Assembly: GCF_009834535.1 (NCBI RefSeq)
Contig: NC_045696.1
Location: 82,834,001 to 82,898,000 of the forward strand
From: Camelus ferus
Lineage: Eukaryota
Reading direction: 5' to 3'
Length of the DNA: 64,000 bases
Made by a program: the position numbers and the translations under genes. Of this stretch, positions 46,901 to 63,364 are shown in pieces. Under the pieces are notes generated by a model, which had not been told where the DNA came from, searched no databases, and saw only the letters and a program-made list of their open reading frames with translations. The number at the start of each line of letters is the position of its first letter. The first letter of the stretch is position 1.

Positions 46901-48278
46901 CCCCAGATTACTTGTATTTAATACACAATGCATCATAAAACAAATCCCTCATCCTGACAGGAAGAAAATAGAACAGCTCATAGCTTGAGCCGGTCCAATT
47001 TATGGCTAAATTAAAAAAAAAAAAAAAAGGCTCCTACAATGGGCAAGTTGAGGAAGGGCAGGAAATCAATGGCAGCAAACCGGGAGCTCTTAAAGGTTCT
47101 CAAGCGCCGAACTCTATGGGAATATCTGACCGGGTTTTAGGTTATTTACAAAGGATTTTTCCTGTCCTACCTACCACTGCTGTGCGATTTTCCCTCAAAC
47201 AATGGCCATTATCTGAAATAACAGTTCAATGTCACAGATAACAGGCCCCCGAAACGAATTAGTCACCACCTCTTGTCATTTTCTCCCCCCCCCCGACATC
47301 CCTCCTTTTTGTTACTATTTTTGTTTTTAAATCAGCATTTTGGGGAAATATAGACCTACTAGATTTACACGTCTATTTGTTCTTGGAAAAAACAAAAAGG
47401 GACTTGTACTGTCCCCGTTTGCAGATGAAGTTTAACATAAACGGGCTTTCCATCCCCTCCTTCTCCACCTCCCCTCAAGTGTCCCTTGACTCGCTTACTT
47501 TGCTTAACTTTCCATTGTTGAGCTGAGAAATTGGGTTTTGTTCATTTGTTTTTATGAATGAAGTTTTGTGATAAAAAGCGTTTATTTCCATTTAACCAAA
47601 GGATTTTGCTAAAATTTCCAAGGTTGGCTAAAGGAAATCTTTAGACCCTTTTATTCTGTCACACATTCCCTATATTCTTCCTTCCCATGTTGTTTCTGAA
47701 ATGTGTTGATAAAAACTGACCATATATTAGAAAGTTAGGAATCACCGTATGGTGCTGATCCTTCCAGACAACATTCATGATGTTAAAAGTTTAAAAAAAT
47801 AATCTGAGTTATCAAATTGCTTAATTACACTTTGGGGCGTTCACGATATTTTAGTTAATGTATCAGAGAATATGGCAAAAACTCACCAGACAATCGTCAA
47901 CCTCTTTTAGCCCATAATACACTACTTGGGCAAGTTGTATGTAAATAATGTTTCAGGTTTTTCAATTCCTTCTTCTAAGAAAAATCCGTTTTAAAAAGTA
48001 CCATACTCTTCTGCTCACCTAACTATAATAATGGAGGGAGTACATTAGAGTACGAATTTCAGTGATAATAATAAATATTTAGCAGAAAACTAGAAATGTC
48101 CATTTCAACTTTTTAGGCTACTGTTTTCTGAGAATTTCTGAACTAATTCTGTTTAGCGTGAGCCAGCGTCTCTGTACCCTAACCTCATCCTCGCCCCCTG
48201 CAGCGCCCCACCCCCAGCCTTGGTGCACACACCCTCACACCCCGAAAGCACTTCTCCACCCCATCACTCCCATCCCCC

Positions 48279-48280
<2 letters not shown>

Positions 48281-48332
<52 letters not shown>
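48281..48332. repeat. (CA)26 perfect microsatellite in the EVI1 promoter region
   Basis: Uninterrupted CA repeat read directly. Confidence 0.97.
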
Positions 48333-48399: not shown

Positions 48400-49340
48400 T
48401 GCCTGGCGAGATCTCCCCATTGGTTGTTTACCCAGAGAAATCTACATGTTTAAGGGGGATGGCGCATCCATAATCAGTCTGTCCCTATAGGACTGGGTCT
48501 TGGCGACCTTTTTGTGACCTCTCCCTCCAGAGGAGGCTGCTGTCACTTTAAAAATTTACTGAAAGAGGAGCCCGTCTGGCTTCCGATCACTCTGGGCGGC
48601 GGGAGATAGCTCCCTTTCTCCCTCGCCCCGGGTTCTTTCTGGATGGCCGAGCAGATCCTCTTTAAAGAGACAGTCCATGAAATAGAAACCCGGCGGCTGA
48701 GCTAGGAGTTGCGAAAGGGGACGATCCCGTGAGGGTCTAGGACCGGGGAAGGAGCTGCTGAGGATCAGAAAGGGGGCTAGAGCTCCCCTCGCCTCCCCAG
48801 GCCCCCCACCTTTTCAAACTCCCTCCTCCTGCCTGTATTTTCCCCCACCCCCCCAACCCCCCCGTGGAACTGGGAGAGAGAAGTGGAAGAAGTTTTAGTG
48901 GGTTTCAGATAACTTTCATTACACATCGGGCTGATAAGAGCAAGAGAAAGTGAGAAAAGAGGGAGGTGATGTGAACCAGAAGGAATAGCTCGGAGCTCAT
49001 TTAGGAAGGGGGAAAAAAGCCAAAACACACCAAACCCGGGTCACTTCAGACGAGAGGAGACTTCATTTCTGGTCTTAAAAATACACTGTTGGCGGACAAT
49101 AAATCTGAAACGCGTGGTCCTGGCAAGCAGATCCCAGAGACGGACAAAGTTATCAGAGACCATTCGGAAATCGAGACGCGAGGCTTTTTTTTTTTTTTTT
49201 CCGTAATATTTCGAAATGTGGCTCGGGATCGTATGAAAGGACTTTCGTGCAGGAAAGCTGGGGGCTGCTGATCCTTATATTTTGTTTAATTCTTCTGTGA
49301 TTGCCTTTTATTGCTGAGTTGAGGCCATAGAAATCTGAAG
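48400..49340 (+). other. MECOM: EVI1 non-coding exon 1a (3' end firm, 5' end approximate)
   Basis: Strong donor AAG|GTAAGA at 49341, preceded by TATTGCTGAGTTGAGGCCATAGAAATCTGAAG, which matches the recalled human EVI1_1a 3' end. The TSS cannot be determined from sequence. Confidence 0.7.
48495..48520 (-). promoter_or_regulatory. Composite IR3/DR5 retinoic-acid response element
   Basis: The minus strand reads AGGTCA-caaaa-AGGTCG (DR5, 48504-48520). GGGTCT-tgg-CGACCT forms an overlapping imperfect inverted repeat. An IR/DR RARE is described for human EVI1 exon 1a. Confidence 0.75.
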
Positions 49341-49567: not shown

Positions 49568-49754
49568 GTGGGTCGTCCGGCCTTCGGTGGGTCTCTCTGC
49601 CGGCTGTCGGCCTCCTTTCCTCGCGCTCTTCTCCTGCTTCCCCTCCCTCCGTGTGTCTGTCCGTCGGTATCAGGGACGCAGAAGGTGGGGTTGCCAAAAT
49701 CTGAATTCCTGGCACCGGCCACGCGACTTTGGAGCCGCTTTCGGCCGAGTTCCA

Positions 49755-49834
49755 CCTTGCCAAGTAATAGCTTTGCTGTCCAACATCGTGTGCTGCTTCG
49801 CGAGAAAGTCACATTCGGACCCTTTGGCGAGATT
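49755..49834 (+). other. MECOM: EVI1 non-coding exon 1c (also the first exon of the 1d variant)
   Basis: CCTTGCCAAGTAATAGCTTTGCTGTCCAACATCGTGTGCTGCTTCGCGAGAAAGTCACATTCGGACCCTTTGGCGAGATT matches a recalled human EVI1 transcript 5' end. The GT donor at 49835 is weak (GTGGGG). Confidence 0.7.
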
Positions 49835-50879
49835 GTGGGGATTTTTTTTTTTTTCTTTTTGCTGTTGGTTTTTTGAAAGGGCCTTTCTCTAAAGTCCACC
49901 TAAAGGGAATTCTTTTTTTTTTTTTTAAGCTATCTTTGGAACTTGACAGCTTTTAAAAACACAGGAGTGTGTTAGATGAAATGACGGAAGATGTGTTGTT
50001 ACTTTATTTTATTCGAGATTTCCGAGACGATTAAGACATTTGGGAGACAAATGCAGTTCTGTTAGCAAATCAAAAGCGAATAATTCACCCAGGGGGGAAA
50101 ACGTTTCTGAAGAAACTTAAGCTTTTGTCTTGGGGCAAGAATATGCAGAGTAAGAAAGTTAATATGTTGGTGAAATATTTGAATAATCATGTAACATATA
50201 TGTAAAAAGATATTCTTTGGAAATGAACCTGTTTTTAAATTAATTTCACTGTTGACAGTGGCAATGGCAATAATGTTAACACGGAATAAAATTACACCTA
50301 GAATTTTTATGTGCAGTATATGCAATAATTAACTCCCTGCCCCTGCAAAAAGGAATGCTAGAAAGCTAAGGGGATAGATGATTTTTGACTTTGAAATTAA
50401 CAAGTTTTCCACGTCTTTCTGCAAATATGAAATGGAACTGGTGTTGCATTTCACTGACTTCACCCTATTTCCTTCATTAAATATTTCTCTAGTGTGTCAG
50501 TAGAACTGCCTTTCTTTTTCTTTCTTCTTCTTCTTCTTCTTCTTCTTTTTTTTTTTTTTTTTGGGTAGTCAAGAAAACAAACAACACAGATCAACCAGAA
50601 ACCAAACAAGCCAAAAAACAAAACAATAATCCCAACCTTTTGCTAGTTTGAAGTGTGCACTGCTGTTGTTATTTATGTTCCTTCTAGACATCCGAGGAGG
50701 GGGGAATCTCCAGTTGCCATTTGAGTTGATCAGCATTGAGAGTTGAAGAAAACAACTTAAAGTTTGTAATTTTATAAATAAGAAATTGTTAAAATCTGTT
50801 CTTCTCACTAGAGAGGGTATTTAATGTAGACATTTTGTTGTTGTTACTGTGAAGAGGTGTCCTGGAAAAAGACTTGCTT

Positions 50880-50883
50880 TGTG

Positions 50884-50931
<48 letters not shown>
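50880..50931. repeat. (TG)n microsatellite, about 25 units with one interruption
   Basis: gtgtgtgtgtgtgtgtgtttgtgtgtgt...; ends about 90 nt upstream of the 51021 acceptor. Confidence 0.95.
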
Positions 50932-50933
<2 letters not shown>

Positions 50934-51020
50934 GCAATTATTATCCTTATCTTCTGTTTCAGTTTTTCTTTTTAAAATTGTGGGACAACTTATTGCCCTT
51001 TAATTGTCTCATGGCCAAAG

Positions 51021-51083
51021 GCTTATTCATAATGCCTCTTGACTAGAGACCTCAGAGCACTGGGCTGCTTCTTGAAGTTTGTG
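51021..51083 (+). other. MECOM: 63-bp cassette exon (orthologue of the EVI1_1d-specific exon)
   Basis: Acceptor AG at 51019-51020 and consensus donor GTG|GTGAGT at 51084. The sequence GCTTATTCATAATGCCTCTTGACTAGAGACCTCAGAGCACTGGG...CTTGAAGTTTGTG resembles the recalled human 1d exon. Confidence 0.7.
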
Positions 51084-52280
51084 GTGAGTTAATGACTTGA
51101 ATCTGCAACTGAGTTACCTGAATTCTGTGCAAAATTGCTTTCAGTCTATCTACCCACGAGTTTAGTTTTAACTTTTATAGGTATAGATACAGCAGGGTTC
51201 TGTGGGGATTATTTAATTCATTACCTTCTGTTCTAGACTATATTGTTTAGTCTTTGGTAGGAAACTTCCTCAAGTTTGCGTTAACTGATTGACATTAACA
51301 TTACCAGCCTTTCTAGTTGTTCACCATCAGATCAAAAACTCTGCAGCTTTTAGTACTGATGTTTAAAACATTACTGCTGCTAGTGAGTCAGAATAGCTTC
51401 AAAGTACACAAAACCTTAAAAATGGATATTTCCCATTTCAATCTCTGTTTAATAGGCATCCTAAGTAGTGATTGCTATTTAGTGTAGGCCAAATGTAAAA
51501 TCTCATGAAAAATAACAATATCCAAACATATATAATGATGGCAGTTTATTGCAACATCTTTATGTATTTTTCACTTGTTCACAAGCCAGTTTTGGTATTT
51601 TGCTTATGATACGTAAAACTGAAATATGCATTGGCATGTGTTAACCAAAACATTAGGTTGACATATTTTGCATGAGTGTTTACCGATGATTTATTTTCAC
51701 TTGTTTTTCCTTAGTTTCATCAGAAACATCAATGGGACAAATCTCATTATCTTCTTCAATTAAGGGTGTGATTTAATTGTTTCATGGTAGTGCAATGCAA
51801 ACTGAAAAGGAAAAACAATATTTAAAGTTTTTAATTGCATTAATTTAAAGTGCAAAAAATGTGAACATACACACTTAAAAGGGAAGACTATCTGAGCCTA
51901 AAATATTGACTTATTTAGTTTAGAAATATTATATTAATATATGCCATTCAATATTATTTTTGTAAAAATCACATTGGATAAAATTAAGGCAGTAACACTC
52001 ATTCATGCATAACAAGGAAATGAGCATTTTTTGAAACCAATTAATCAGTTTTTGTAATAATTTACAATTGCTTTGTTCCTTTGAAAAAGCAGTACATTGC
52101 CACTTCCAAGATAACTTACTACTATTCCTTCTTTATTCATATGTATGCTGTCTGGACTTTTTTTCTTCTAAGGATTCAAAGGAGGAACTATACATTTGAA
52201 TGAAATATTTTCAAGTAATTAACCATTCTAAATGAATGAACTGATATGGAAATTGATTGTTCTCATCTTCTTCCTTCTAG

Positions 52281-52415
52281 ATCTTAGATGAGTTTTGCAA
52301 TGTGAAGTTCTGCATAGATGCTAGTCAACCAGATGTAGGAAGCTGGCTCAAGTACATCAGGTTCGCTGGCTGTTATGATCAGCACAACCTCGTTGCATGC
52401 CAGATAAATGATCAG
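52281..52415 (+). CDS. MECOM: MECOM internal exon (MDS1-EVI1 exon 3 = EVI1 exon 2), PR/SET domain part: ILDEFCNVKFCIDASQPDVGSWLKYIRFAGCYDQHNLVACQINDQ; coding in MDS1-EVI1, 5' UTR in most EVI1 transcripts
   Basis: Polypyrimidine tract and acceptor tctcatcttcttccttctAG at 52280, donor CAG|GTATGT at 52416, 135 bp open in phase 0. The peptide matches recalled human MECOM except Y->C at residue 6. Confidence 0.98.
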
Positions 52416-63138: not shown

Positions 63139-63202
63139 TGCTTGTGTGTGTGTGTGTGTGAGAATGTAACTGCTTGTGTGTGTGTGTGTGTGAGAATGTA
63201 AC
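63139..63202. repeat. Perfect 32-bp tandem duplication containing a TG tract
   Basis: TGCTTGTGTGTGTGTGTGTGTGAGAATGTAAC occurs twice in tandem. Confidence 0.92.
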
Positions 63203-63364
63203 TGATCTCATTTTCCCCAGTTAACTAACTTTATTTTTTTCTTCCATAATCTCTATCTGGTTACAGAATTGTTTTTTTTTAATAGTCTTAGGATAAAATT
63301 TAAAACCAAGAATACTTTATGGTAAAATGAATAAGCACCTTAAATGGTTTCATGGTTAAATTCC

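Follow-up and report, generated by a model that had tools for sequence, protein, structure and literature searches.

A short cassette exon in the MECOM (EVI1) locus of Camelus ferus is, judged by sequence comparison, the counterpart of a human leader exon that is already known and routinely assayed, EVI1 exon 1d. The exon occupies positions 51021-51083 of the window, by which we mean the whole 64-kb stretch of DNA analysed. We estimate at roughly 70% the probability that it serves as a minor untranslated leader segment in EVI1-promoter RNA, that MDS1-promoter RNA skips it, and that stray inclusions are removed by decay.

The original prediction proposed a poison exon that switches between MDS1-EVI1 (PR+) and EVI1 (PR-). 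Its exon boundaries, its gene, the human MILDEF isoform, and the conditional stop codon hold up; a selected switch, a conserved 63-nt symmetry, a camelid-specific loss of the ATG, a GUG start, a join to MDS1 exon 2, and an action of TDP-43 are not supported. A stop codon of this kind is ordinary in untranslated sequence, and it seems to be no more than that here; an on/off switch is not proven.

Landmarks of the EVI1 5' region

The features concerned are these:

48504..48520, + strand: inverted DR5 retinoic-acid response element that marks the EVI1 exon 1a orthologue; 17/17 against the element described in PMC2779989
49569..49584, + strand: part of EVI1 exon 1b; 16/16 to primer EVI1_1b-F, by eye
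49781..49834, + strand: candidate 54-nt short first exon of the human 1b/1c type; length from NM_005241.2 primer coordinates
50880..50931, + strand: (TG)25 microsatellite with one interruption; a UG repeat in pre-mRNA
50943..50962, + strand: candidate alternative acceptor, AG 50961-62; 14/17 pyrimidines, top 3% of 911 AGs
50989..51020, + strand: cassette acceptor, weak by pyrimidine count against 911 AGs, with branch-point-like motifs around A -29 and A -18
51021..51083, + strand: optional 63-nt exon, orthologue of human EVI1 exon 1d; EVI1_1d-F 17/22
51030..51032, + strand: TAA in the PR-domain frame; chance-level
51032..51046, + strand: uORF of 4 codons, MPLD-stop; chance-level
51060..51062, + strand: CTG in frame with exon 2; best near-cognate start candidate (G at -3, G at +4)
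51081..51089, + strand: terminal GTG and donor GTGAGT; the human counterpart of the GTG would be ATG, judging from Q03112-4
52281..52415, + strand: EVI1 exon 2, 135 nt; ILDEF...NDQ

The gene is indeed MECOM/EVI1, as predicted: the exon at 52281-52415 encodes ILDEF...NDQ. In MDS1-EVI1 this exon supplies the PR domain's C-terminal half; in EVI1 it belongs to the 5' UTR. Camel, alpaca, and many other mammals share its peptide unchanged, and its acceptor contains 16/17 pyrimidines, matched by 0.4% of 911 AGs. The order of landmarks (retinoic-acid response element at 48504, exon 1b primer at 49569, cassette at 51021, exon 2 at 52281) is the same as in the human EVI1 5' region. Neither MDS1 exon 2 nor EVI1 exon 3 was located within the 64-kb window.

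The cassette is 63 nt long, preceded by AG at 51019-20 and followed by GTGAGT at 51084-89. In frame 0 it reads A-Y-S-stop, with the TAA at 51030-32; an ATG at 51032-34 overlaps this stop (as TAATG) and opens the short uORF, and the last codon is GTG (51081-83). These boundaries and motifs, together with the TG tract, lie where the original prediction had placed them. The donor is near-consensus and strong. The acceptor is weak: its 10/17 pyrimidines are equalled by 32% of 911 AGs.

Three observations tie the cassette to human exon 1d. First, primer EVI1_1d-F matches 51035-51056 at 17/22 positions, the next best match on either strand of the whole window being 15. Second, the supplement of PMC2779989 places this primer at 69-90 of NM_001105077.2, and exon 2 starts at 117 in that record and at 55 in NM_005241.2 (reverse primers placed by eye; two agree). 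The human cassette is then 116 - 54 = 62 nt, provided that both RefSeq records share a 5' end. Third, on the same reckoning, exon position 15 is where the primer begins, both in human and in the window. Equal primer offsets make the two acceptors homologous, and lengths of 62 and 63 nt leave the window exon longer by 1 nt. The frame-preserving length of 63 nt, part of the earlier argument for a switch, is thus not conserved, given the shared 5' end. Position, homology, and splice boundaries all agree with EVI1 exon 1d, the donor to within 1 nt if a shared 54-nt first exon is assumed.

The 5' exons of EVI1 were reportedly defined by Aytekin in 2005, and exon 1d is what a clinical qPCR for EVI1 in wide use detects, its primer occurring in six of the papers searched. 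The human transcript is known as EVI1_1d, NM_001105077 (PMC2779989, PMC13246443), and its nomenclature varies between sources: in PMC2779989, 1d counts as an alternative first exon; PMC2474635 labels the same primer 'exon 1b'; and the numbering in PMC8474639, with the primer in exon 2 and the 135-nt exon as exon 3, is consistent with an internal cassette. PMC2474635 also describes a patient with CML in whom the EVI1_1d amplicon was expressed without MDS1/EVI1.

Upstream, the stretch at 49781..49834 is the likely partner of the cassette. Its putative donor is the weak GTGGGG at 49835, and GTATCA at 49667 is a candidate donor for exon 1b. A stretch at 46903-46922, within a GC-rich island some 1.5 kb upstream of exon 1a, resembles by eye, with a one-base gap, an shRNA listed as 'MDS1; NM_004991' in PMC13136877; this hints at a further upstream exon and possibly a mislabelled reagent. 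An (AC)26 microsatellite at 48280-48332 opens the exon 1a region, some 170 nt ahead of the retinoic-acid element (48504-48520). Among metagenome contigs, none of 97 pattern matches was a relative of exon 2. Of 24 sequencing runs listed, 20 contain all or some of the stretch, one being on record as RNA; they carry no weight as to expression or splicing.

Start codons and the upstream acceptor

Human NM_001105077 presumably encodes the isoform Q03112-4. This isoform begins MILDEFY according to the table of PMC4009873, and it corresponds to ENST00000264674, 1116 aa (PMC11490020, Table S2); PMC11584820 gives NP_001098547.3. The human half-PR isoform invoked by the original prediction is therefore documented. 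It lends substance to one alternative, in which the cassette acts in translational control: it would supply either an initiation codon (AUG in human; CUG 51060 or GUG 51081 here) for an EVI1 with half a PR domain, or a uORF by which translation of EVI1 is damped. Further support comes from a rat model that starts M-ILDEF, from several rodent models with other short in-frame extensions, and from the CTG at 51060-62, which is open into exon 2. With G at both -3 and +4, this CTG is, by its sequence context, a better near-cognate candidate than the terminal GTG, whose context is poor (T at -3, A at +4). Initiation at GUG 51081, suggested earlier, is unlikely on that basis and was rejected.

Against this alternative stands the rarity of the start. 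Among 134 collected ILDEF proteins (only cluster representatives were ranked, human-type Y sequences would fall below those listed, and annotation may omit the exon), ILDEF follows GWE in 115, other sequence in 18, and a lone M in one, the rat protein. A query with the rat M-ILDEF N-terminus gave 556 matches; within the best 120, the M was covered by the rat protein alone. These counts lend no support to an ancestral ATG that camelids lost. They are explained as well or better by a gain in primates, with an independent one in rat if the same exon is involved, and they hint that the half-PR isoform begun at AUG arose in particular lineages and is not ancestral.

Other considerations point the same way. 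Seven out-of-frame ATGs in exon 2 are already present in every EVI1 leader, and PMC2779989 predicts that all 5' variants encode the same 1051-aa protein. Rodent and other models, one of them a mouse GenBank protein, carry short in-frame extensions before ILDEF, that is, other half-PR routes; the short rodent and bear N-terminal extensions map convincingly neither to the cassette nor elsewhere in the window. A role for the cassette in translational control is accordingly unlikely.

A second alternative concerns the acceptor. The cassette may be vestigial in Camelus ferus, or AG 50961-62 may be used instead, with the resulting 121-nt exon normally kept down by UG-binding proteins. About a third of random AGs do as well as the acceptor at 51021, and AG 50961-62, a candidate within the top 3%, has the better pyrimidine tract and lies 31 nt from the UG tract. 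The CFTR TGmTn acceptor, another case of TDP-43 repression beside UG repeats, has a similar layout. The near-consensus GTGAGT donor argues otherwise, as does retention of an AG at the human-homologous position, and we regard this alternative as very unlikely. With the 121-nt form, an ATG at 51011 (MAKGLFIMPLD-stop) would come in as well, and loss of TDP-43 would be expected to lengthen the exon in this way.

The TG tract itself ends 89 nt before the cassette acceptor and 31 nt before position 50963. Because of the latter distance, the likeliest role of TDP-43, if it binds, may be to mask AG 50961-62. The tract is one of two sense-strand TG-dense loci in the 64 kb; the other, at 63139-63204 in the intron after exon 2, is a perfect 32-nt tandem duplication with (TG)9 in each copy. 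A TG tract would fall by chance within 150 nt of one chosen exon with a probability of about 1%, and within 300 nt with about 2%, rising to perhaps 5-10% over a handful of local exons. Nearness of the TG tract is the sole feature of the cassette mildly beyond chance.

The stop codon and possible joining to MDS1 exon 2

In PR+ proteins, GWE leads directly to ILDEF in phase 0 in 103 of the best 120 (588 matches). MDS1 exon 2 thus ends in phase 0, and the frame used in the original prediction was correct. Its conditional logic is also sound: were the cassette included after MDS1 exon 2, the TAA at codon 4 would be a premature stop upstream of later junctions, albeit one expected at chance level. 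The human exon presumably has TAG at codon 4, and an exon of 62 nt would in addition shift the frame.

This logic underlies the reading as a regulated poison exon. Transcripts begun at MDS1 would be kept free of exon 1d by UG-binding proteins; once these proteins became scarce, the exon would be included, MDS1-EVI1 RNA would go to NMD, EVI1 would be spared, and the PR+/PR- ratio would shift. The exon has a genuine acceptor, and the position of the UG tract suits the proposal. In PMC5446763, where TDP-43 targets are defined with a 100-nt flank, UG runs mark TDP-43-repressed exons; the 25 TG units here, 89 nt upstream, fall within about 100 nt. In PMC6440020, Mecom is reduced in the neocortex of TDP-43 cKO mice at 12 months (-1.76; 0.05 at 3 months), a change in expression rather than splicing.

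Chance accounts for the stop and the uORF. A frame-0 stop occurs in 73% of 13,401 local intronic 63-mers, in 35/47 pseudo-exons of the form AG-63 nt-GT, and in 66% of the 20,000 shuffled sequences; for an internal uORF the figures are 39% of the local intronic 63-mers and 30% of the shuffles. With frameshifts counted, about 91% of arbitrary UTR exons of ~60 nt would break the PR frame and so count as 'poison'. Stop and uORF at chance rates give no sign of a selected switch, and the prediction that they form one finds no support here.

Conservation is likewise that of a leader. In the single comparable stretch, the cassette agrees with human at 17/22 positions (77%, by eye), whereas the exon 2 primers agree with the window at 20/22, 21/22, and 22/24 (91-95%, by eye). 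The high conservation typical of a poison exon is absent, given 77% identity and a 1-nt change of length in one short stretch and one species pair. On this short sample, the cassette would seem to behave as UTR.

Protein sequences bear on whether the cassette is ever joined to MDS1 exon 2. A search with the end of that exon (best 120 of 131 short proteins) and 24 clusters, with up to 15 listed members apiece, gave 345 proteins, 262 of them with a MECOM-type GWE. The residues that follow GWE are ILDEF in 115 and V in 120; two proteins end there, and 25 continue otherwise. We read the GWE-V continuations as intron read-through or MDS1 exon 3. AY(S) follows GWE in none of the 262 listed proteins, and none of 20 human Ensembl MECOM transcripts has an NMD biotype (PMC11490020, Table S2); both negatives are weak, since NMD targets are seldom annotated and are under-represented in databases of proteins and annotations.

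Of the 25 odd tails, eight were compared with the cassette, and none stood out. The best, from marmot XP_048670304 (SSTQCE-stop), is equalled or beaten by 4% of 3,419 AG sites, as expected among eight tries, and was therefore rejected. In RefSeq models from marmot, Arvicanthis, and guinea pig, MDS1 exon 2 is followed by exons in which a stop codon comes 2-13 residues on; these stop exons show no match to the cassette beyond chance.

The literature also weighs against regulation, within its scope. MECOM is absent from six supplements of PMC5446763, K562 knockdowns included, where the pipeline sought unannotated exons. No control of MECOM splicing by TDP-43 or NMD was found in the literature searched, whose scope lay outside the bioRxiv cryptic-exon tables; and neither a MECOM poison exon nor co-mention of 'MECOM' and 'poison exon' was found in that literature, which left out most subscription papers. 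All told, a regulated poison exon seems highly improbable.

The same low credence attaches to a dual output of exon 1d (leader or start donor in EVI1-promoter RNA, the start being AUG in human or the strong-context CUG 51060 here; NMD trigger in MDS1-promoter RNA) gated by TDP-43 or CELF through the UG tract, the gate covering either inclusion of the cassette or its extension to the hidden AG 50961-62. If it were true, the level of UG-binding proteins would set the ratio of PR+ MDS1-EVI1 to oncogenic PR- EVI1 post-transcriptionally, and a length-variable microsatellite would tune that ratio between individuals.

A probable optional leader exon and its known relatives

The preferred reading, an optional untranslated leader, would account for the observations as follows. 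The exon 1d orthologue, which follows the short EVI1 first exons and precedes the 135-nt exon 2, would probably be included in a minority of EVI1-promoter transcripts, with EVI1 still translated from the AUG in exon 3. Being untranslated, it would drift like UTR: 77% identity, a 1-nt change in length, and ATG in human against GTG here. MDS1-promoter transcripts would skip it, because its acceptor is weak and that of exon 2 far stronger. Stray inclusion would lead through the premature stop to NMD, as quality control rather than as a regulated switch. The UG tract would be an ordinary microsatellite that may reduce inclusion or help mask AG 50961-62, without being a selected PR+/PR- control.

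The distinction matters. The balance between MDS1-EVI1 and EVI1 is important in stem-cell maintenance and leukaemia (PMC9810535, PMC10553128), and reviews ascribe PR+/PR- output to two promoters (PMC7985498, PMC10553128). A splicing switch confined to PR+ transcripts, if real, would mean a further, post-transcriptional level of control at which splice-switching oligonucleotides could be aimed; non-productive MDS1-started RNA might then be detected by the common EVI1_1d qPCR.

Poison exons of SR-protein genes and of BRD9 are conserved elements of AS-NMD. Like them, the window exon is a short cassette that contains a premature stop when read in one isoform's coding frame; unlike them, it is not highly conserved in the stretch compared, and it is a UTR exon of transcripts from another promoter. 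With the TDP-43-repressed exons described in PMC5446763 it shares a UG run (25 units) no more than 100 nt away; it differs from them in being annotated in human rather than cryptic, and in that its UG tract lies away from the pyrimidine tract of the used acceptor. The closest relative is human EVI1 exon 1d. Both lie about 1.2 kb before the 135-nt exon, with the same acceptor offset and 17/22 identity across the primer; the human exon, by inference, has 62 nt and ends in ATG, whereas the window exon has 63 nt and ends in GTG.
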